A stretch of 64,000 nucleotides of DNA, taken from a virus. The notes beneath the pieces are model-generated. The model saw only the letters and a program-made list of their open reading frames with translations, did not search any database and was not told the origin of the DNA. This document shows, piece after piece, positions 27,677 through 63,981 of this stretch. Position numbers and translations under genes: made by a program. The stretch spans positions 2,320 through 66,319 of the IMG/VR virus record IMGVR_UViG_3300021170_000016, one strand, 5' to 3'. The stretch's first letter is position 1. Each line of letters starts with the position of its first letter.

Positions 27677-28702
27677 ATGGCTGGTGAGACAAAGGTAGAG
27701 ACCACGGACGACTTCGAGGCGGCCTTCGCGCAGATTGCGGATGCAGACGCGAAGGGCACGGAGGTCAAGATCGAGCCTCAGGTCGAAAAGACCGCGGAGC
27801 AGATCGAAGCGGAGCGTGTTGCGGCTGAAGCTGCAGCGGCCGAGAAGACAGCGGCTGACGCCGCAGCGGCGGCGAACGCCGGCAAGACCCCCGAGCAGAT
27901 TGAGGCCGAAGCTACCGCGGCGGAAGAGGCTGCGGCGAAGAAGGCCGCGGACGATGCTGCTGCCGCCGCTGCTCAAGTCGCTGCTGCGGCCGATGAGCGT
28001 CTCGCTGCGACGGTTGCGAAGGCGGTCAGCCAGACCAACGCCGAGGCTGCGGCGGCTGAAGCTGAACGTCAGCGTGCGGCGGCTGCGGCGGCGAAGGAGC
28101 CTCCGGCGCTTCTCACCGCCGAAGAGATGGCGGTCGTTCGGAAGTTCGAAGAAGAGTTTCCGGATATCGCCAAGGCGCAAATGATCCAGCGTCGCGCCGA
28201 ATACAAGCAGATCGTCGGTCACACGCTCGATCAGGTCCAGAAGTATGTCGGCGAGCAGATCGAGCCGCTCGCCAAGCTCTTGGCGAACCTCGCCGAGCGC
28301 ACGCATGTCGGCGATCTCCAGAAGGAGGTCCCGAACTACGACAAGCTCGATGTCGCGACGCTCGCGGCGTGGGTCAAGACGCAGCCGGCATACATTCGGA
28401 CTGGAATGGATGAGGTCATGCGCAGCGGTTCGGCCACGGACGTCAAGGACCTCGTCACGCGGTTCTACAAGGAGACAGGGACGACGCCTCCGGCTGCTAC
28501 GCCGGCTGCGAAGACCCCCGAGGAGACCGCTGCGGCTGCTGCGGTCGATGCGAAGACCAAGAAGGCGGTCGCCGCGCTCGCGCCCGTCGTCACCAAGCGT
28601 AGCAGTGTCGCGGCTGCTGCGGAGCCCGCGGACTTCGACGGTGCATTCGCCGCCGCGGCGCGCGAGCTGGAAGGTATTGACGGCGGTCGATTCACGCGTT
28701 GA
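27677..28702 (+). CDS. capsid scaffolding protein
   Basis: Ala/Glu-rich, DFEAAF and DFDGAF ends, precedes MCP. Confidence 0.75.
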   Translation: MAGETKVETTDDFEAAFAQIADADAKGTEVKIEPQVEKTAEQIEAERVAAEAAAAEKTAADAAAAANAGKTPEQIEAEATAAEEAAAKKAADDAAAAAAQVAAAADERLAATVAKAVSQTNAEAAAAEAERQRAAAAAAKEPPALLTAEEMAVVRKFEEEFPDIAKAQMIQRRAEYKQIVGHTLDQVQKYVGEQIEPLAKLLANLAERTHVGDLQKEVPNYDKLDVATLAAWVKTQPAYIRTGMDEVMRSGSATDVKDLVTRFYKETGTTPPAATPAAKTPEETAAAAAVDAKTKKAVAALAPVVTKRSSVAAAAEPADFDGAFAAAARELEGIDGGRFTR

Positions 28703-34046: not shown

Positions 34047-37000
34047 TTGGCGTTTCCTCCGAGCCCAGATTCGGCGTGGCTCGCCGATCTACCTAAGCTT
34101 GGCGCTCCTCCACCGCCCGCACCGACAGGCTTCTGGGCGAACCCGGTTGTCTCGTCGATCGCGAGCGGCTTCGGCAAGCTCGGTCAATCCGAAGCTGAGT
34201 TCGTGCAAGCGGGTGGCGCTGCGCTTGGCCTCCCTGGTGTGGAGGCTGCAGGCGCGCGTGGTGCGGAGCGCGCTAAGGCCAACACCGCGTTGTTCGCCCG
34301 GCCTGATCTTGAACAGCAGGGTATGCTGAGTTCGCCGTCGTCGTTCATCTATCATCTCGGTCAACAGCTTCCGACCCTGGTTGCGGCCGGCGCGGGTGCT
34401 GAGGCTCTCCCGGCGATCGGTGGTGCTGGTGCTCTCGCGCGCGCCGCGCGTGCTGGTGTGTTCATGCTCCCCTCCGCCGTCGGCGCGAACGTCGAAGAGC
34501 AGCAGGCGCAGACCCCTGGTGAGCTGACGCAGGAGGGTGCGATCAAGGCCATCGCGCTCGGTGCGCCCGAGGCTCTTGCACAAGGCTTCGTTCCCGGCAG
34601 CCTCGAACAGATTTTGGAGAAGGGTGCTGCGGGTCAATGGGCTCATCGCGCATTGGTTGGTGGTGCGTCTCTTGGCGCGTATCAGGGTGTGCAGGCCGGC
34701 GCGACGCGAGCGATCACGGACGCGGCGTATCATCCGGAGATGGGCTTCTCCGATCGCGCGGAGAACGTCGTCAAGGCGGCGCTCGAAGGTGGTATCACCG
34801 GCGCGGTCTTTGGTGGCGCGATCCACGCGGTCTCCGGACAAAAGGTTTCGGTCAATGCTCCGACCGAGGTGATCAATGACGCGACTGCCAAGGTGCTGGA
34901 GCCGACTCAGGATCAGGGCGGTCAGAACCTCAGTAATATGCAGCTACCGGCTCCGCAGCCGCTACTGCAGATCACGGACCAGCGCACGTCGCCCGGCAAC
35001 ATCGGGACACCGACGGAGCGGCCGATCGCAGTCAATACCGCTGGCGAGGCGTCCGCTACTCCGACCGACGTCATGCCCGGCCAGACGATCTTCGGAGGCC
35101 AGGGCGGCGCGTCGACCGATGTGGCTGCAGCGTCGCGCGCCGGAGCGCAGAAGGCTCTACCTGCACCGACGCCTCCTGTCCCTGACGTTGTTGCACCTCT
35201 TGCAGAGACCCCAAGCGAGGACCTCCGCACTCTGCACACTGCGCTCGCCGCGCAGGACACGATGGACACCGCCCAGAGTGGCCAGTTCCAAGAGGTCCGT
35301 GCGGAGTTGGCGAAGCGCACCGTGCCCGGTCTCAAGATCGGCGAAGGGAATCTCTTCACACCCGAGGAGGTCGCAGCGCGCGCACCGCAGGTTGCTGAGG
35401 TCAAGGCCAGTCTCGATCTACCTGAGAAGGCGCAGAACACGCCCTGGTTCAAGAACCTCAACGCTGCGAACGAGCCTGAGCTGATCAACGCGATCGACGC
35501 GGAGCTGAAGTCGCACGATCGCGTCTCGAAGGCGGACGCGACCGCGGACAATCCGATGCGCAAGGCCACCAAGGTCCCTGACTGGCTGCAAGAGCTGGCG
35601 AACGACAAGGGCTTGATGGATGGTAGCAAGCCGTCGTCCCCTGCGGAGAAGCTCGAAGGCTTGACGGAGATCGATAAGCCGCGCGCGCAGGCTGTGGTCG
35701 ACGCCGCGACGAAAGTAGGTGGAGCGCAGCTGCGCGCCGCGAACCGCAAGATGGCCGACATCAACGCGCAGATCGAGCAGTTCACCGCTCTCGATGCGGT
35801 GCATCAGGAGGCCGCGCGTCAGCTCGCCGACGCGAAGACTCCGAAGGACCCGGCGACGGGAACTCCGATCGCGCAGCCGGACCTCACTGTCAAAGCGCGC
35901 CCTGCGCCGACCGGTCTTGATCCAGCGGTGCAGGCGAAGTGGGACGCTGCGGACGCGATCGTGCGCGGGAACAATTCCGACGCTATCAAGAACCAAGCGC
36001 TCGCGCATCAAGCCGCTCTCGAAGCTGGACAGTCGGTGACGAAGCAGACGCTTGCGAAGCTCGGGTCCGATGCGAAGAAGGAAGCCAAGAGCTACTCTGG
36101 TCCGGATCGTTCGATTGTGGAGGATGCAAATGCCGTTCAAGAGCGAAGCGCAGCGCCGGTGGATGCACGAGAACCATCCGGAAATGGCGGCGGAGTGGGA
36201 GGCGGAGACGCCGCCAGGGCCGCTGCCTCACCACGTGCCAAAGACCTCGCCCAAGGCAAAAAAGCCGTCGAAGCCCTTGGGAACAAGTTTGCTGGCGAGG
36301 CAGAGACATCAAAAACGGCTAAGGGGCCAGTAGCTCAAGAGAAGCTCGCGCCGGAGTGGGCGCATGCTACCGCGGACGCGCGCCAGGGTGAGGTCATCTA
36401 CTCCCATCCGGACGGTGAGCATGTTGTGGTCCGTTCTTTCGATGCATGGGGCGAGCCTCAATATCAGATGCATAGTCACACCGGTGTCATCCCCGATGAG
36501 AAGGTGACGCAGGCGTTGGAGAAGGCAATCACGCAGGACAAGTTGCAGGATAAGTTCGAGGCCCAGAAGAACCCCGAAGGTCCGTGGAAGGGAAAGGACG
36601 ACTCCGTCGTCGGGACCACAAACGTTCCGCTTGAGAATGTCGGACTTGTCGGAGACTGGCTACGACAAGTCGGGCTCGGCAATGTCAAGGTCGCCCTCGT
36701 CAATCCGCTCGACGCTCGTGGGGCCGCCGCCACGCGCGAGGGATTGAATGGTGACTATCAGGCTGCGCGTCGCGCCGGTGTCGCCGCGTCGGACGGCAGT
36801 ATGAACAGCTTCGGCCCGAAGCTCAACGACTTCTACATGCACACCGATCCAACTCTGTCGCCCGAGAAGACGATCGATACCCTCGCGCATGAGACTGGGC
36901 ACATCGTGGAGAAGACTGCACTCCTCAACGCATCTCCTGAGACGAAGCGTGCGATTAATGACGCGTATGCGAAATACTATGCGAAGGCCAATGCGCTGCC

Positions 37001-51004: not shown

Positions 51005-52980
51005 CCTTCAAGCCTCCCTGGTCCCTCCCGACGAGTGATGGTGTTGACGTCGGCGAGCCTGTCATGCAGCTCCCGCCGTCGATCCACTTCACGGTCGACG
51101 CGACGAAGGCGTTCCTCGATACGATGGGGCCCGCCATCACCTCGGTCGCTGATCAAATCGTCGACTTCTACAGCCCGAACATCACCCAGTTCGTGCAGCA
51201 GCAGCGGCGGCTGAACGCGATCAGTGGTATCGCGCAGGCGTCGAACCGGATGTCCCTCCCTGGTCTCGATCTGGAGCATGCCAAGAACCAAGGTATCGAG
51301 CACATCCGCATCAGAGTGCAGCCGGAGAGCGCGCCGCCGCAGTCGTTCCAGATCACGGTGGACGTCAATCTCGACGGCTACGTGGCGTGGGTTCACAACT
51401 GGTCGAAGTTCCAGGCCCCCCAGGTGGACAACCAAGCGATCGACTTCGTCGTCAACGGCTACGGTGTCCTGACGAACTACACGCCAGACGACGATCTCTT
51501 CGTGACGAACAACCCTCCGGAGTTTGGTGCGGCGCTGACGCAGGCCACCGTCATCGTCATCGCTGCGTTCGGGAATACCGCGCTCCGGTGTCAGTCGCTG
51601 CAGGATGACGCGAAGGGCTTCAACCCCTTCACGAAGACGCAGGGCAGCGGTGGCGCTGCACCGACGTGCGTGCCGGCGCGCAAGGACGTCCCCGCGAGCG
51701 GCCCGGTGCCGTCGCATAAGGACCTCCTCGGATACTTCATCTTCAACTGGGGCGACCGGCTCAACCCCGACACGTGGTCCTATAACGGCCGTCAGAGCGG
51801 CGGGTCCAATCAGACGTTCGACATGAACTTCCCGAAGGAGTTCGTGATCAAGATCATCGAGTTCAAGAGTCCGCAGAACAGCCCGCTGAAACCGACCAGC
51901 TCGAACGTCATGTGGTCGCAGACCCACAACTTCCCGCCGCTGAGCCAGCTCGGCCAGAACGGCGTCGATTTCACCTGTGCAGAGTTTTACAATCGTGCGG
52001 TGTTGCGATCGGTGCAGCGGTCGTGGAAGCTGCAGACGACGACGCCTGCGGACATCCTCCTCGCCAACGACAAGCCGCTCTACTTCGCGAACGACGGCGG
52101 CGATCCGTTCAGCGATCTCGCGGCTGGACGCTACTTCGCGATGTCGTTTGATCTATCCACGCAGAAGTCGCCCGCGGACGCAGCGACCTTCGGCAACGCG
52201 AACACGCCGACGCCTCCAGCCATCCCCATCACCGCCGCGATGCTGTCTGTCCAGCAGGCGAACCAAGCCGCGGCGATTGCCCATGGCGCGGCATACACCG
52301 CAGCCTATAATACCCTCCAAGCAGCCTACTCCGCGCTCGCGCTTGCGAACTCTCCGATCATGGACTTCGCGCAGCTGACCGGCGTTGGGTTCGCCTACAC
52401 GTATGTGCGCGATCCGACGCCCGCGCATCTCTCCGCGCTGCAGACGGCATTCCCGACGCTGTGGCCGGACCTCATCACCTACGCTCAGGCTTCAATCGCT
52501 TTTCAAAACAACCCCAGCACAGCGAACGCTGCTGCGCTCGCTGCTGCTCAATCCGCGAGTCCTGGTGTGGAGGCTGTTACTTTTGGTGACGCTCTTGGTG
52601 TGATCGCGAACAGCGACGCATATAACTACTCGATCGCGTATCAGGTGAATTACGACAAGGCGATTGCACAGGGACAAACTATCGCTCAAGCGCAAGCCGC
52701 TGGAGCCGCGGCGACCGCACAGGGGCAGACCGCCTTCATCGCGTCGGAGACCGCCTTCATCCAATATGCGACCGACAATGGACTGACATCCCAGGCCGCC
52801 GCGGCGACGACCGCAATGAATAATGTGCCCCCGGCCCAAAGCGCCTACATTACTGCGTTGATCGCCTTCAACCCTCAGCACATGATCGCCAACAACTACC
52901 AGGGGATCAGCCAGTTCAACTACCGGATCATCACGGTGACGAAGGGGGTTTACTCGATCGGCCCCTGGTCCCAGGGCTAA
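51001..52980 (+). CDS. hypothetical virion protein
   Basis: 659 aa, ATGA coupling. Confidence 0.75.
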   Translation: MTFKPPWSLPTSDGVDVGEPVMQLPPSIHFTVDATKAFLDTMGPAITSVADQIVDFYSPNITQFVQQQRRLNAISGIAQASNRMSLPGLDLEHAKNQGIEHIRIRVQPESAPPQSFQITVDVNLDGYVAWVHNWSKFQAPQVDNQAIDFVVNGYGVLTNYTPDDDLFVTNNPPEFGAALTQATVIVIAAFGNTALRCQSLQDDAKGFNPFTKTQGSGGAAPTCVPARKDVPASGPVPSHKDLLGYFIFNWGDRLNPDTWSYNGRQSGGSNQTFDMNFPKEFVIKIIEFKSPQNSPLKPTSSNVMWSQTHNFPPLSQLGQNGVDFTCAEFYNRAVLRSVQRSWKLQTTTPADILLANDKPLYFANDGGDPFSDLAAGRYFAMSFDLSTQKSPADAATFGNANTPTPPAIPITAAMLSVQQANQAAAIAHGAAYTAAYNTLQAAYSALALANSPIMDFAQLTGVGFAYTYVRDPTPAHLSALQTAFPTLWPDLITYAQASIAFQNNPSTANAAALAAAQSASPGVEAVTFGDALGVIANSDAYNYSIAYQVNYDKAIAQGQTIAQAQAAGAAATAQGQTAFIASETAFIQYATDNGLTSQAAAATTAMNNVPPAQSAYITALIAFNPQHMIANNYQGISQFNYRIITVTKGVYSIGPWSQG

Positions 52981-54935: not shown

Positions 54936-56150
54936 ATGGCTATCAACGTCGGCGAATATCTCGGTCAGAAGTATGACATCCTCCGTCAGCAGGCGACCGA
55001 CGAGGGGCAGCTCAAGCGCGCCCAGGCTTCGCTCGTGTCGTCCCAGGCGGCTACCAACCCTGCCGAGGCCGCTGCGCGGGAGGCCGCGGGTTATGGTGCG
55101 GCTGCGCAGAGTCAGGGTGCGGGCGCATATTCGCGGGCTCTCGCGGCGGCCGAGCCGGGCCTTGCATCCAGCGAGATCGGGCTGCGTGGCGCTCAGACCG
55201 AAGAGGGGCAGGCCACTGCTGGCCTCACGCGCACGCAGAACCAAAACATCGGCTCGCAGGTGCCGCAGTATCTCCTCGATCTGTTCGGCAAGCGGTCGAG
55301 CGGCAGCGGGATCGACCTACCCACGCTCAACAACTTCTCGAAAGGAACCGACAACGTGAAAGGTCCTGCTCCCAAGGCCGGTGCGAAGACCACCGACACG
55401 ACGCCTGCCATGCTGACGCCCGGCGAGGCTGTCCTCAACAAGGCCGCGACCGAGCACCTCGGGCGTGACACGATCGACGTGCTCAACGCGATCGGCAACA
55501 TCAAGCTCGGCCAGACCGACGTGGCGCAGCAGCCCGCGGGCCCGCCGACGCACGCCGACATCCACGGCGCTGGTGGCATCCCCGGCTACGCGCAGGGCAG
55601 CTCCAGCACCGGCCAGATCGATCCGATCGCCGGCCAGGGCGGCACGTGGGGACCGAGCGGCGACACCCCCGCCCCTTCGGGCAACACTGGTCTCCGATCG
55701 TCCCTGGGTCTTGGCGTGCCCCGTCCGGCCCCCGCCCCGAAGCCGATCGGCTACGAGAGTGGCACGTCCATGGTGCCCGGCTATAGCGATGGGACGAGCG
55801 ACGTCGGCGATGGCTCGGGTGGGAACCAGAACTACCACAACGACACCATCATGAAGGCGCGCGGCCAGTCCAGCTCACCGTCGATGGGCGACCAGAACGT
55901 CCGCGAGGGCGACACCACCTCTTCGCCCAAGACGCAGACGGGTGGGGCCACCGGCTACGCCAAGGGCACGTCCAAGGTCCCCGCAAAGGGCGGCGGCAAG
56001 CCCGCGGCGAAGGGTGGCAAGGGCATTACCCCCGAGCTGATCCAGGCCATCATGAGCCTCGGCAAGGGCGGCGGTGGTCTGATCCCTCCCGGCCAGGGCG
56101 CACCGATGCCGATGCCTATGCCCCAGGTCGCGCCGGGACCGCAGCAGTGA
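54936..56150 (+). CDS. internal virion/ejection protein
   Basis: AAGGAG RBS; DTTPAMLTPGEAVLN motif; repeated GYxxG. Confidence 0.75.
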   Translation: MAINVGEYLGQKYDILRQQATDEGQLKRAQASLVSSQAATNPAEAAAREAAGYGAAAQSQGAGAYSRALAAAEPGLASSEIGLRGAQTEEGQATAGLTRTQNQNIGSQVPQYLLDLFGKRSSGSGIDLPTLNNFSKGTDNVKGPAPKAGAKTTDTTPAMLTPGEAVLNKAATEHLGRDTIDVLNAIGNIKLGQTDVAQQPAGPPTHADIHGAGGIPGYAQGSSSTGQIDPIAGQGGTWGPSGDTPAPSGNTGLRSSLGLGVPRPAPAPKPIGYESGTSMVPGYSDGTSDVGDGSGGNQNYHNDTIMKARGQSSSPSMGDQNVREGDTTSSPKTQTGGATGYAKGTSKVPAKGGGKPAAKGGKGITPELIQAIMSLGKGGGGLIPPGQGAPMPMPMPQVAPGPQQ

Positions 56151-56368
56151 TCTCGTGGATCAAAGCCCACCTCGTCGATGATGTGAAGAGCGCGCACTGG
56201 TTCTGGACAGTGCAGCTTGCGATCTTCTGGAGCGGGTTCTCCGGCCTCATGCTTGTGTGGCCCGCTCTCGTCGCGTATATCCCGCTCCCGATGTTCTTCG
56301 TGCTGTCGATCGTCTTCAGCATCGCGCTCGGACTCGCGCGGCTCTTCAAACAACCGGGGCTCCAATGA
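56147..56368 (+). CDS. holin-like membrane protein
   Basis: two TM segments directly before endolysin, ARLFKQP end. Confidence 0.7.
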   Translation: MISWIKAHLVDDVKSAHWFWTVQLAIFWSGFSGLMLVWPALVAYIPLPMFFVLSIVFSIALGLARLFKQPGLQ

Positions 56369-56838
56369 ACCGACTTCAGAAGGCGGGCGCGGCCAGTGCG
56401 ATTGCGACGATGGCCACCGGTGTGGTCGGCGGCTTCGAGGGCCTCCGACAGATCGCCTATCCCGATCCTGCCACGCGCGGCTATCCGTGGACGATCTGCT
56501 ACGGTCATACCGGCCGCGACGTCAGCCCCGGCGAGCACGCTGCGCTCGGCGAGTGCAAGCGGCTGCTGCTGAAGGACCTCAACACCACCGCCAACGGCCT
56601 TGAGAACTGCGTCCATGTGCCGCTGCCGGACACGCGCTATGTCGCGCTGCTGTCGCTCGGCTACAACATCGGTGTCGGCGGTCTCTGCCGATCGAGCATC
56701 GTGCGCGATCTCAACGCTGGTCGCACAGCACAGGCATGCGCGCGCTTCCCGAGCTATAATCGTGCGGCCGGCATCGTCTTCCCCGGCCTCACGCGTCGTC
56801 GTCTGAAGGAAGAGGAACTGTGTGAGGAGGGTTTGTGA
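56365..56838 (+). CDS. GH24 lysozyme endolysin (SAR-like N-terminus)
   Basis: FEG...YPD...WTICYGHT, YNIG, GLTRRR..E. Confidence 0.92.
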   Translation: MNRLQKAGAASAIATMATGVVGGFEGLRQIAYPDPATRGYPWTICYGHTGRDVSPGEHAALGECKRLLLKDLNTTANGLENCVHVPLPDTRYVALLSLGYNIGVGGLCRSSIVRDLNAGRTAQACARFPSYNRAAGIVFPGLTRRRLKEEELCEEGL

Positions 56839-60655: not shown

Positions 60656-61024
60656 TCAGCTCGCCGCGCCCTGGGCGGCGGAGATCATCTTGGCGAACCA
60701 CTCTGGTGTAGCAGCTCCCTTGCCGATGAGGCAACCGTCTGCACCGAAGCCGAACAGCCAGATGTAGCCATCAGCCTTTTCCTTGGGCTGCGTCGCCACA
60801 CTCATCGTGACCGGCTCCTTGCCCTTCGGGATGCTATCGCGGTTCTCTTTGATGAACTCCGCGACTTGCGGCGACGTGAGATCGACGACCTTCGCGCCAG
60901 GGTTGCGATCGAAGATTGACTGCCGTGTGTCACACAGCTTGATGGCTTCCTCTGCAAACGCACCGGTGCCGATGATGACGCCCGCACAGATTGCAGCGCC
61001 GAAGACTAGAGCATACTTCCACAT
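60656..61024 (-). CDS. secreted/periplasmic protein
   Basis: signal peptide with AFA cleavage, two Cys in mature part. Confidence 0.65.
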   Translation of the reverse strand: MWKYALVFGAAICAGVIIGTGAFAEEAIKLCDTRQSIFDRNPGAKVVDLTSPQVAEFIKENRDSIPKGKEPVTMSVATQPKEKADGYIWLFGFGADGCLIGKGAATPEWFAKMISAAQGAAS

Positions 61025-61038
61025 AGCACTCTCCTCTA

Positions 61039-63981
61039 TCAGGGCTGCGGGTCAGCGGGCGGCCCATCCGCTTTCGAGACCTTCGGTAGCATGGCGGCCA
61101 CGTCGGGGTGGTTCAGGTTGACGGTGAAGCACCACGAGCGGCCCTTAGCGAACAGGGTGCCCTTGCCCAACTCCTGGCGGGAGTTGGTGTCCGTGACAAT
61201 CCCCTGTGCATTGAGCGCCTTGAGTATCTCGACGGAGTAGCGGTTCGCGCGGTTGCAGTAGGTGCGGAAGTCCTGCTTCAGCACATGGATGATCCCGCTC
61301 TCCATATGGTGGTGCGCGAGTATCTGGCCGTGCTTGTTCTCCGAGAGGATGTTGGGCTCCAGCTTGCCGCTCACCTTCTTGGTCTGGACGATGCTCCCGT
61401 TGATGTGCGCGAGGTAGTCCATAAGGGTCGCGAGCGGCGAGGTGGAGTCGCGCTGGGCGTCGATCGTGTCGCGCATCTCTTCGAGCTGCTCGGCGATGAA
61501 CCAGTCGCGCAGGTATTGGAGATCGTAGTTGAAGTAGCCCATCTTCTGCGCGATGTCCCCGGCGACCAGGGACGAGGCGATGTCGGCGAACCAGAAGCGT
61601 TCGTGCGACTTCATGCTGGCCTTGGTGGCGATCTCGTCGAGCGTTTTCAGGACGGCGGCTTTGACCTTGTCGACCTTGGCGACGACGAGACGCATGTAGT
61701 TCTCGCCGATCCAGCCGTAGTTCTCATACAGCTCGCGGAGGTAGGCGTCGGCCTGGACCGGTGTGTGAACGCCCAGGTCCTTCTCGAAGCGCATCTCCAG
61801 CACGCGCACCGCACCAGCGGCACCTGCGGAGTTGTTAATAGACAGCAGGCCCTGAAGGCTGACATTGGCGGTGCTCATGATGATCGAGGCGCGCTCGTCG
61901 CCGGTGAGCGACGCTTGCTCTGTGCCGGTGCGATCGGCCCTGACACGTGGACCCATCTGCGTGGAACCCATCGCGAAGTCCTTGGCAATCTCCTCCTTCA
62001 TGGAGGTGATCTCATCCAAGCACGTGGGGAGGTTGTTGAGGATGCCCATGCGTGTGTTGCGCACGGTGTCGGTCGCGCCTTTGGCCGTGCAGTTGATCGC
62101 GGACTTCTTCGGGTTGCCCCAGATCGCCGCAGCGGTGTAGAGCGCGGAGGACTTCGACGCGCCGGTCTCGCCCTGGGCGTGGATGATGACACCATTGTGA
62201 CCAGTCATCCAGAAGAGCGGAGACGCGAGGCTGGCGAGGATGAACAGCTGGTGCTTCACGTAGCGGCGATCGTTGTAGAAGCTCATCAGCTCCACCTGCC
62301 GCTGCAGCGTCCCTTTCTGCGTGAGGTAGTTGCGCGAGGTCGCTGCGACCTTGGAGAGCTGCACAGACGAGTCGCTACCATCCGGTAGGATGATCTTGCT
62401 CGGGAGCACGAACTTGGTATTGTCGTCCACCCATCCCAGGTGCGTGTGCTGAACAGCCGTCGGTGAGAGGCGGATCAGCTCTTGGATATACGCGCTCATG
62501 TAGCTCTTCAGCTCCCCGAAATTAGACGTGTAAATGCCATGATTAGCGAGTCGTGTCTGCAGCTGCTTATCGTCAACGAAGGTGGCAGCATCAATCGAGA
62601 TGTCACGCGTCGCACCGTGTGGTAGGTGTGCGCGCCACTGTTGCGATTCAATCTCGCGCGCCGTGCTCGTCGAGCGCTCAAGGGGATAAAGGTCGTAAGG
62701 GTATATCTTCCTCTCATAGGCCCGGCCTTCCTTGCTCTCCAGGATGAGCACGATACCACCTTCGCGCGAGCGCTTCCAGGGGAGCGGTGGATCGGCGATC
62801 TCGCGTTCGGTGATGACGCCAGCCACGACCTCGGCGACGACCGGTGGTGGAGCCTTCTCTTCGAGGCGCGCGGCCTCGGTCGGGAACTTGGCCCGCTTGA
62901 TGAAGGGGCAGGTGTGGCAGAGGTGAGCGTTCGCTTGCCCGCACGAGTCCTCCATCTTGGAGCAGCTGACTGCTCCAGACATCTTGTCTTTCCACTGGTC
63001 GAACTTCGCATCGCATGTGACCGGATCGTAGTCGCGGTGTCCACGCGAGATGTGGTGGAAGTGCTTGCGTCCGTTCTGCACATAGTTCAGCGCGCCGGCC
63101 ACCGCATACCACTCCGGCTCATTGCTCGTCGCGCCCTCCACTGCGGCGATGCGACGCATCTGCGCACACGCTGTAAGGAGCGAGACCATCGTCGGGAGCG
63201 GACGATCGAACGTCTGCTGCGTGTTGCTACCGAGCGCCGCTGCAAACGTGGACGGCGCGGCCTTCGCCGCCGCGCGCGCCTTGACTACAATGTCGTTGTC
63301 GTCGATCGCCTTGTCGAGCAGCTTGTCCAGCGCCTCGATCGTGATAGGTGTCGTTTGCTTGTAGACGACGACCGGACGCTTCTCGGTCTTCTTCAGGTTC
63401 CACGTGCCGGCGACTCTCAGGACGCTGGCGGTATCGGTCGTGCGTGTGTTGTCGATTTTGAGCCCGAGGTGGTGTGCCAGCGACTTGAACTTCGCAGCTC
63501 TAGCAGCCCACTCATCAGACCCAAGATCACGATCGAGCGTCCAATAAACGTGCAGCCCCCCGCCAGAAGAAACAACCATGGGGATTGGTAGACGAGTAGC
63601 AGACACAAAAGATTGAAGGCCAGCGACAGCGTCAGCTTGATTCGAATACTTCTTGTCATTGTCAGCCTCCACGTCCAGGTCGAAGAAGAAGATACGTGAC
63701 GAGCGCATGTTGAGCTGCGTGCGCACGCGCCAGCCGCCGACCCACGGCTTGTCTTCCTTGTCGGCGTCGCGGTGGTGATGGTGGTCCCAGACCCGCTCCT
63801 CCTTCAGCGTGTGCGTCGCGAAGAAGACGTTCTTGGTGTCACCGATCGAGTCGACGAACGCCGCCGCCGCTTCGATCGTCTCGAAGACGTGGTGATCGTA
63901 TCCCTTCTGGGGGAACGGGGTCGCGATGCAGTATAGCCCTTCGTCAAGCCATACTGCTCGCAAGAACTCGATGGGGGTCAC
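61039..63981 (-). CDS. primase (RepB/AEP-like) fused to a DUF927 helicase
   Basis: FFDLD, SGGGLHVYW, VLRVAGT, C..CPF, LGW, GETGASKS, CLDEIT. Confidence 0.85.
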   Translation of the reverse strand: MTPIEFLRAVWLDEGLYCIATPFPQKGYDHHVFETIEAAAAFVDSIGDTKNVFFATHTLKEERVWDHHHHRDADKEDKPWVGGWRVRTQLNMRSSRIFFFDLDVEADNDKKYSNQADAVAGLQSFVSATRLPIPMVVSSGGGLHVYWTLDRDLGSDEWAARAAKFKSLAHHLGLKIDNTRTTDTASVLRVAGTWNLKKTEKRPVVVYKQTTPITIEALDKLLDKAIDDNDIVVKARAAAKAAPSTFAAALGSNTQQTFDRPLPTMVSLLTACAQMRRIAAVEGATSNEPEWYAVAGALNYVQNGRKHFHHISRGHRDYDPVTCDAKFDQWKDKMSGAVSCSKMEDSCGQANAHLCHTCPFIKRAKFPTEAARLEEKAPPPVVAEVVAGVITEREIADPPLPWKRSREGGIVLILESKEGRAYERKIYPYDLYPLERSTSTAREIESQQWRAHLPHGATRDISIDAATFVDDKQLQTRLANHGIYTSNFGELKSYMSAYIQELIRLSPTAVQHTHLGWVDDNTKFVLPSKIILPDGSDSSVQLSKVAATSRNYLTQKGTLQRQVELMSFYNDRRYVKHQLFILASLASPLFWMTGHNGVIIHAQGETGASKSSALYTAAAIWGNPKKSAINCTAKGATDTVRNTRMGILNNLPTCLDEITSMKEEIAKDFAMGSTQMGPRVRADRTGTEQASLTGDERASIIMSTANVSLQGLLSINNSAGAAGAVRVLEMRFEKDLGVHTPVQADAYLRELYENYGWIGENYMRLVVAKVDKVKAAVLKTLDEIATKASMKSHERFWFADIASSLVAGDIAQKMGYFNYDLQYLRDWFIAEQLEEMRDTIDAQRDSTSPLATLMDYLAHINGSIVQTKKVSGKLEPNILSENKHGQILAHHHMESGIIHVLKQDFRTYCNRANRYSVEILKALNAQGIVTDTNSRQELGKGTLFAKGRSWCFTVNLNHPDVAAMLPKVSKADGPPADPQP
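63417..63659 (-). CDS. nested +1-frame two-TM membrane protein inside the primase gene
   Basis: GGAGG 6 nt before ATG; T-ending codon patch in the host gene. Confidence 0.5.
   Translation of the reverse strand: MTRSIRIKLTLSLAFNLLCLLLVYQSPWLFLLAGGCTFIGRSIVILGLMSGLLELRSSSRWHTTSGSKSTTHARPIPPAS

Follow-up and report, generated by a model that had tools for sequence, protein, structure and literature searches.

The virus record IMGVR_UViG_3300021170_000016 comprises 66,319 bases, of which the last 64,000 (62% GC; hereafter the window, to which coordinates refer unless stated otherwise) were analyzed here. Near the end of the window, on the minus strand, a replication operon contains a primase-helicase gene, and wholly nested in the 980 codons of this gene, in the +1 frame and at an offset of 322 nucleotides (nt), lies an open reading frame (ORF) of 80 codons. 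This ORF probably represents a clade-specific overprinted gene, whose product would be a small hydrophobic membrane peptide about 50 residues long. A preliminary description of the window had proposed at this place an overprinted membrane protein with two transmembrane (TM) segments inside the primase catalytic region, with the geometry of gene E within gene D of phiX174. The ORF exists, with the translation given there, and the locus comprises the following features.

61039..63981, minus strand: host gene of 980 amino acids, with an N-terminal region resembling archaeo-eukaryotic primase (AEP) primase-polymerases and a DUF927 / SaPI-Rep-like helicase part.
63417..63659, minus strand: overprinted +1-frame ORF, 80 codons and a stop, only the first 52 or so codons being common to the relatives.
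63504..63659, minus strand: conserved part of the ORF (residues 1-52 of the +1 product), with a basic N-terminus, a hydrophobic stretch at residues 9-40 and basic residues past 40.
63540..63635, minus strand: hydrophobic core (residues 9-40 of the +1 product, primase codons 116-147), in which 85% of the primase codons with C as second base (xCN) are xCT, read as Leu in the +1 frame.
63657..63659, minus strand: ATG start, built from primase codons N108 (AAT) and D109 (G..), present in 4 of 4 members of the clade and in 0 of 64 outgroups.
63666..63670, minus strand: GGAGG Shine-Dalgarno (SD)-like motif, 6 nt 5′ of the ATG, across primase codons V104-E105-A106.
63487..63666, minus strand: patch of T-ending primase codons (codons 106-165).

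For the host gene, Pfam names DUF927 as the sole family (PF06048; residues 451-690, 81 bits against a curated cut-off of 22.6, E = 1.5e-22), and Pfam Prim-Pol gives no match to the 980-residue protein. A profile of 40 homologs compared with the PDB identified SaPI Rep-type helicases (8tch, 9e-13; 5dgk, 1e-11) and, weakly, the AEP domain of PrimPol (6zp9, E = 0.054) and LigD-Pol (0.27). In PHROGs, residues 97-225 match “DNA polymerase/primase” (phrog_2478, 2.6e-10) and residues 399-958 match “DNA primase/helicase” (phrog_8841, 1.9e-28). Two motifs, FFFDLD (99-103, with DxD at 101-103) and SSGGGLH (138-144), are invariant across the 40 homologs and correspond to DxD and sGxGxH, which we take to be the catalytic motifs of AEP primase-polymerases. 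On the basis of these motifs and the weak profile matches, it appears reasonable to speak of a primase catalytic region, as the preliminary description did, although Pfam gives DUF927 alone.

The GGAGG ribosome-binding site reported for the ORF is present 6 nt before the ATG, and this arrangement (GGAGG-N4-9-ATG) occurs 31 times in 128,000 positions. By themselves, neither the open frame nor the ATG is remarkable at this GC content, and neither goes beyond chance: when synonymous codons 101-165 were redrawn 20,000 times from the primase gene's own usage, the 52-codon +1 frame stayed open in 66% of the draws, and an ATG stood at the ORF start position in 19%. By contrast, the Kyte-Doolittle hydropathy (KD) of the +1 core, 1.64, was reached by 0 of the 20,000 draws (-0.60 ± 0.33; maximum 0.73). 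Therefore, the real signal is the patch of T-ending primase codons, which is equivalent to hydrophobicity in the +1 frame, as the third base of a primase codon is the second base of an ORF codon.

The abrupt shift to T-ending primase codons noted in the preliminary description is real and sharp. In 20-codon windows over codons of about 106-165, the proportion of codons ending in T (T3) rises from 0.05 to 0.50-0.60 and the proportion ending in G or C (GC3) falls from about 0.9 to 0.30-0.45, after which both return. T-ending codons number 29 of 60 inside the patch against 87 of 921 in the rest of the gene, and GC3 is 0.43 against 0.84 (0.81 for the genome), whereas codons ending in A (A3) are not enriched (5 of 60 versus 65 of 921). 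Among 15,062 windows of 50 codons in 75 crude gene calls, the patch has the highest T3 (0.52; mean 0.126, standard deviation 0.07). Three weaker T3-rich stretches (0.36-0.42) were observed in long plus-strand genes (52444-52650, 34272-34480 and 27923-28130); unlike in the primase, their +1 frames hold stops or are Arg-rich. A further apparent T3 island at 56257 is a holin gene read in an over-extended endolysin frame.

The distribution of these features among relatives is narrow. The N-terminal 300 residues of the primase have 266 database homologs at E ≤ 0.001, the closest at 65% identity, and pattern scans yielded homologous DNA at 59 loci of IMG/VR, 13 loci of metagenomes and 2 loci of genomes, 67 of which cover the patch region; no closer relatives were found in IMG/VR by single-protein patterns. 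Only three of the 67, each from a different metagenome, carry the full feature set, and these are the three closest: L073, L071 and L066, whose primases are 72% (first 159 residues), 71% and 63% identical to that of the window. In each of them, an ATG stands at the corresponding +1 position and is followed by an open frame of 52 or more codons, and an SD-like core (GGAGG in L073 and L066, GGGAG in L071) lies 6 nt 5′ of this ATG. In L071, primase residue 105 is Gly, the family consensus, and its codon is GGA, by which the GGAG core is kept. T3 in the patch is 0.32-0.48 in these relatives versus 0.14-0.22 elsewhere, and the KD of the +1 core is 1.35-1.97. Thus, the comparison of ribosome-binding site, ATG and frame in related primases that the preliminary description had suggested found all of them kept, in the three closest relatives only. 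Among further database proteins, P0002-P0007 (57-65% N-terminal identity) have N/D followed by D/E/A at the junction that forms the start codon and would thus be compatible with the ATG, a necessary but not a sufficient condition, whereas P0008-P0009 are not.

The 64 outgroup sequences (59 distinct; primase identity at most 52%) show no ATG, GTG or TTG at the start position (0 of 64), an open +1 frame in 13, an SD-like 4-mer in 6, no T3 patch and a core KD of at most 0.36. According to the preliminary description, a recombinant origin of the patch, with closure of the +1 frame in homologs, would refute the gene; the frame is indeed closed in 51 of the 64 distant homologs, whereas all members of the clade keep it open from the same ATG, and a search of 50,697 phage records revealed no donor of a recombinant segment. 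In a tree computed without the patch, the four carriers cluster together (support 80/93), with the non-carriers L063, L069 and L065 as their sister group, and this monophyly points to a single origin followed by retention in four lineages.

The pattern of third bases indicates what may maintain the T's. An ORF codon consists of the second and third bases of a primase codon and the first base of the next. Consequently, a primase xCN codon (Ala, Pro, Ser or Thr) contributes Leu to the +1 product if it ends in T, Arg if it ends in G, Pro if it ends in C and His or Gln if it ends in A, whereas an xGN codon ending in C or G contributes Ala or Gly, which a membrane helix tolerates. In the core (primase codons 116-147, four carriers pooled), T is the third base in 33 of 39 codons (85%) with second base C, compared with 11% of such codons in the flank and 12% in the cores of outgroups; in 18 of 38 (47%) with second base T, against 11% in the flank; and in 8 of 13 (62%) with second base A, against 34%. 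Codons with second base G are not enriched (6 of 21, 29%, versus 26% in the flank and 25% in outgroups). T3 enrichment is thus confined to the codons in which a base other than T would place Arg, Pro, His or Gln in the +1 product. The third bases of xCN codons are T 33, C 4, A 2 and G 0 in the core and G 94, C 48, A 23 and T 21 in the flank, so that the T:A ratio is 33:2 versus 21:23 (p = 6e-6), and charged residues occupy 2 of 128 positions of the +1 core in the clade versus 410 of 2048 in outgroups. This dependence on the second base fits selection on the +1 product.

The retention of these T's also appears to exceed what neutral decay would be expected to leave. In the carriers' flank, the share of same-amino-acid codons that are identical is 42-57% for five of the six pairs and 75% for L073 with L066. 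In a simulation of neutral decay from an all-T ancestor at flank-derived rates, at least 33 T's in 39 codons were obtained with P = 5e-5 (pi_T 0.11) or 3e-4 (pi_T 0.2), and the fitted rate of the patch is 0.92-0.95 of the flank's. Among pairs of xCN codons of the same family, the third base is kept in 29 of 36 in the core versus 61 of 131 in the flank (p = 3e-4, from pairwise counts that are not independent). The constraint would seem to bear on Leu-coding positions and hydrophobic composition and not on the exact sequence, because the T's of xCN codons are retained while overall synonymous identity is not raised and xTN codons change faster. Amino-acid divergence of the primase itself, expressed as patch over flank, gives ratios of 1.04-4.07 within the clade, and comparable outgroup pairs have means of 0.94-1.23. 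Between L066 and L073, the difference jumps sharply near codon 113, from 8.5% in the flank (first 103 residues) to 35% in the patch (codons of about 113-160), which could be due to dual-coding conflict, diversifying selection in either frame or local recombination.

The predicted products share about 52 residues, comprising a basic N-terminus (e.g., MTRSIRIK), a hydrophobic segment about 32 residues long (9-40) and a basic flank past position 40; the ORFs of three carriers have 52, 66 and 80 codons, and that of the fourth has at least 53, as its contig ends within the ORF. By a generic criterion for a TM segment, a hydrophobic stretch of 19 or more residues with a mean KD of about 1.6 or more, the peptides qualify on hydropathy, their KD19 maxima being 1.96, 2.74, 1.59 and 2.14, with L071 borderline. 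The threshold of 1.6 is the one commonly applied to transmembrane stretches. AlphaFold2, given the four-sequence alignment, predicts a single helix over residues 3-63 (mean predicted local distance difference test score 70.5, and 84-90 over residues 11-40). A hydropathy dip with Pro27 occurs in the window and in L071 only, and the stretch is continuous in L073 and L066. The two TM segments of the preliminary description are thus not established: the feature common to the four is one hydrophobic stretch, modeled as one helix, and the dip with Pro27 is present in two of four. One long TM helix or a tight hairpin is a possible topology. The sequence LLAGGCTFIG at residues of about 30-40 is what the primase motif SSGGGLHVYW yields when read in the +1 frame, and outgroups read similarly there (e.g., ..VAACMLIG).

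A profile of the four peptides found nothing at E ≤ 10 among 5.8 billion proteins, the ESM Atlas gave no usable match, and neither Pfam (E ≤ 0.1, all four peptides, E family included) nor PHROGs nor PADLOC gave any; tblastn and blastn of the peptide and the patch against 50,697 phage records were likewise without a match. None of the sequencing runs found to contain this DNA was an RNA run; a soil run is the probable source of the record. In a groundwater sequencing run, a single contig of 166 nt matched 63336..63501 with 3 differences, and it touches only the unconserved tail of the ORF.

The central idea of the preliminary description, an overprinted small hydrophobic gene in the +1 frame with the geometry of E in D, is supported by clade conservation, second-base-specific T3 and apparent retention beyond neutral decay. 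From the sequence features, their restriction to the clade and the selection-like retention of Leu-coding T's, we infer that the ORF is translated and that its product would be inserted into a membrane and be functional. Several observations weigh against this interpretation. The evidence for translation consists entirely of signals in the sequence, and the comparative support amounts to one gain kept in four lineages, as there are just four carriers of a single origin. Homologs of the peptide are absent from all protein libraries searched, the peptides of the relatives are only 38-42% identical to that of the window, and the C-terminal third of the hydrophobic stretch (about 30-40) is largely dictated by the SSGGGLHVYW motif of the primase. 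The patch does not exceed the flank in overall synonymous identity, xTN pairs are less often identical in the core (15 of 42) than in the flank (108 of 160), and the pairwise codon counts lack independence among carriers. The decay test weakens to P = 0.045-0.09 when a local rate no more than half that of the flank is assumed. In four-taxon F81 models of all patch third positions, a stationary T of 0.44 (log-likelihood, lnL, -255.7) and decay of an ancestor with about 79% T to the composition of the flank (lnL -257.2) are not separable, and the freest model prefers decay from a root T of 0.8 to an equilibrium T of 0.15 (lnL -251.8).

These last results are what might be expected if the patch were a decaying relic, that is, an ancestral T3-rich segment, left by a short-lived overprinted gene or by a mutational or recombinational event, which is now being lost while the ORF is untranslated or non-functional. 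The preference of the free-root F81 model (lnL -251.8), the lack of overall synonymous constraint, the quick divergence of the peptides and their differing tail lengths are all consistent with such a relic. We nevertheless regard it as unlikely, because xCT in 33 of 39 xCN codons is more than decay would leave even if the ancestor had been 100% T (P = 5e-5 to 3e-4), because the ATG, the SD-like motif and the open frame are intact in four of four carriers despite diverged synonymous sites in the flank, and because L071 retains the SD core through its GGA Gly codon although the primase residue differs; moreover, an ancestor with 80% T and 0-7% A would be unexplained without selection on the +1 frame. 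The patch might alternatively act as DNA or RNA, with the +1 ORF as a by-product, for example as an origin of replication or a site of DNA unwinding inside the initiator gene, as a promoter within the gene, or as a cluster of rare codons that slows ribosomes between primase motifs I and II. Lambdoid phages have replication origins inside initiator genes, the patch is locally low in GC (0.51-0.54 versus 0.62), T-ending codons are rare in the genome (T3 about 9-13%), and any T3-rich patch automatically yields a stop-free hydrophobic +1 frame. However, the enrichment is specific for T and not for A+T (A3 5 of 60 versus 7%, xCN T:A 33:2 versus 21:23), which also argues against AT-richness or rare-codon selection, and it depends on the preceding base as the +1 amino acid predicts, being absent for GGN-type codons. 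An SD and an ATG conserved exactly at the 5′ edge of the patch would be left unexplained, and the patch contains no iterons, promoter-like sites or stable RNA structure, its RNA being if anything less structured than shuffles (z = +1.7); an origin, promoter or RNA element was rejected on this ground. A nucleic-acid signal of any of these kinds is improbable. An antisense gene was also discarded as a candidate, since the ORF list of the window has no plus-strand ORF across 63487..63666.

The sharp boundaries of the patch look mosaic, as does the L066-L073 contrast of 8.5% and 35%, and might suggest a segment imported from a low-GC relative or hypermutated by strand-specific C-to-T deamination with non-synonymous changes purged, given that NNC to NNT is always synonymous. 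Such an origin is very improbable: none of the 50,697 phage records provides a DNA or protein donor, the lowest-GC homologs have a T3 of just 0.21-0.27 there and would be expected to bring high A3 too, and the patch recurs in four lineages in spite of flank synonymous identities of 42-57% (75% for L073-L066). Deaminase hypermutation in particular was dismissed, as xCG makes up 51% of the flank xCN codons and 0 of 39 in the core, a loss that C-to-T changes could not produce. There is still less to recommend a programmed +1 frameshift, which would yield an N-terminal primase fragment with a hydrophobic tail and no independent peptide, and to which we attach hardly any probability. It would accord with the +1 frame being open for 26-97 codons 5′ of the ATG in the four carriers, but this upstream part is Arg/Ser-rich, unconserved and variable in length, reading of the four sequences by eye (no systematic search) found no conserved shift-prone site, and the conservation of SD and ATG would be unexplained. 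Three carriers have an in-frame ATG five codons upstream, which is absent from the window, and by eye no SD-like motif precedes it.

The candidate gene can be compared with overlapping and small membrane-protein genes of other phages. In phiX174, T-ending codons of D place T at the second position in E and give its Leu-rich TM domain, and de novo proteins in +1 frames are generally enriched in hydrophobic residues; that genome is T3-rich throughout, and the hydrophobicity of E comes nearly free (PMC8227390). E in D of the Microviridae resembles the present ORF in being nested in the +1 frame of an older gene and in having a narrower distribution than the host gene. By contrast, the phage of the window is GC3-rich (0.81) and its T's have been installed locally as an island, its host gene is the primase-helicase of a 66-kb double-stranded DNA phage and not a scaffold protein, the peptide has no Pfam similarity, the E family included, and the phage's own holin and endolysin make single-gene lysis unlikely. 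Gene 4 of T7 encodes a primase-helicase of a different kind from the prim-pol/DUF927 type. Two +1-frame ORFs of that gene, 4.1 and 4.2, are annotated, merely as hypothetical proteins (NC_001604), and the first 58 or so residues of 4.2 are strongly hydrophobic. Unlike the present ORF, 4.2 lies at the 3′ end of gene 4 and runs past its stop instead of occupying the primase catalytic core, and its product has no sequence similarity to the peptide (E = 0.33).

The lambda gene Rz1 lies in the +1 frame relative to Rz. It likewise is a tailed-phage gene wholly embedded in another and encodes a small envelope protein (PMC5295617, PMC6139136). Rz1 differs in that it is a lipoprotein of the outer membrane and acts together with the protein encoded by its host gene, whereas the host here is a cytoplasmic replication enzyme. 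A lipobox-like Cys36 is present in only three of the four carriers (Ser in L073), is imposed by the G-L-H codons of the primase and comes after a leader of 35 residues, which is atypically long, and an Rz1-like o-spanin was not retained as a candidate for these reasons and because the host gene is a primase. T4 Imm and phi29 p16.7 are small early phage membrane proteins with a hydrophobic helix that are expressed with early or replication genes, from free-standing genes. Their size class, helix and early expression form the analogy behind the guess at function given below. The literature searched contained no paper on an overprinted gene in a phage primase of the prim-pol/DUF927 type.

The model that we favor is a single birth of the gene in the common ancestor of the carriers, a small clade of phages from soil and freshwater, between and across primase motifs I (DxD) and II (SGGGxH). 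The invariant Gly-rich motif would have served as a ready hydrophobic seed, from which the gene was extended upstream through the variable loop between motifs I and II. A start codon would have formed where N/D108 is encoded as xAT and followed by a codon starting with G, an SD would have formed from GTG-GAG-G or GTG-GGA-G, and G/C-ending primase codons would have been converted synonymously to T-ending ones, so that the +1 frame reads Leu, Phe, Ile or Val and not Arg, Pro or Ser. Internal initiation on the mRNA of the replication operon would then produce a peptide of about 50 residues (52-80 with the variable tails), which may insert into the cytoplasmic membrane of the host. Provided that the gene is real, we tentatively favor an early-expressed accessory protein that acts on the envelope, in superinfection exclusion or host takeover, because the gene lies in the replication operon, is small and diverges quickly between close relatives. 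Of the roles listed in the preliminary description (exclusion, lysis control and host takeover), none gained support from the results themselves. Anchoring of the replication machinery to the membrane is a more doubtful proposition, and a role in the timing of lysis is a rather poor one; some other function is just as conceivable as the envelope role. Lysis is less likely because the phage has a separate holin-endolysin pair, located as follows.

56147..56368, plus strand: holin-like gene of 73 residues (phrog_1356, 4.5e-6; DUF7940).
56147..56838, plus strand: lysis pair formed by this gene and an endolysin (phrog_7, 1e-44) with a probable Met start at about 56365, at the end of the holin gene.

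The peptide itself was set aside as a holin, having no PHROG or Pfam match and given this holin-like gene and endolysin. Directly downstream of the primase gene, at 60656-61024 on the minus strand, is a gene for a 122-residue protein whose N-terminus resembles a signal peptide and which matches nothing in PHROGs, and this is followed by a homolog of a “DNA transfer protein” of 572 residues (phrog_1745, 2e-134). The ends of the record repeat each other: its first 111 bases (positions 3-113) correspond to the start of the primase gene at 66190-66300 of the record (window positions of about 63871-63981), covering 37 residues of the primase start, at 97% identity in one comparison and 100% in another. 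It follows that the assembly is circular or terminally redundant and that the genes preceding the primase are found at the start of the record.

Hydrophobic +1 ORFs were also observed elsewhere in homologous primase genes. L003 (3275-3448), L032 (same peptide) and L075 (3332-3520) have a different +1 ORF with an ATG, of 57-62 codons and with a hydrophobic product, over the Walker-A region (window primase residues of about 601-657), where local T3 is 0.48 versus 0.09 and 0.42 versus 0.16; L007 and L076 keep the ATG and the open frame there, but not the hydrophobicity. This may be a second, independent overprinting event. L038 (2663-2932) has a +1 ORF of 89 codons with an ATG, at primase codon 417, with a T3 of 0.46 versus 0.17 and a hydrophobic N-terminus. 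It is tempting to speculate, although the odds are clearly against it, that hidden membrane-peptide genes have been born repeatedly and independently in phage primase-helicase genes, namely in the present clade, in L003/L032 and L075, and in T7 as 4.2. If so, the coupling of a membrane peptide to the replication mRNA would itself be functional, for example in tethering or timing the replisome at the membrane or in switching on exclusion together with the replication genes, and local T3 islands in GC-rich phage genomes would be a general detector of such genes.

The case is a fresh example of a known principle, one phage gene written over another, and its practical importance is modest at present. 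Genes nested out of frame are never reported by standard gene callers, and small phage membrane proteins, which are often those acting on the host envelope, consequently remain invisible in annotation. When a hydrophobic gene is overprinted in a GC-rich genome, it leaves a sharp and testable footprint, an island of T-ending codons graded by the second base. The present example suggests that not even the catalytic core of an essential enzyme is closed to overprinting, which would here have used the variable loop that separates two invariant motifs. Should the peptide prove real, it would represent a young and datable de novo gene, present in one clade and absent from its sister, and would be suited to the study of protein birth.

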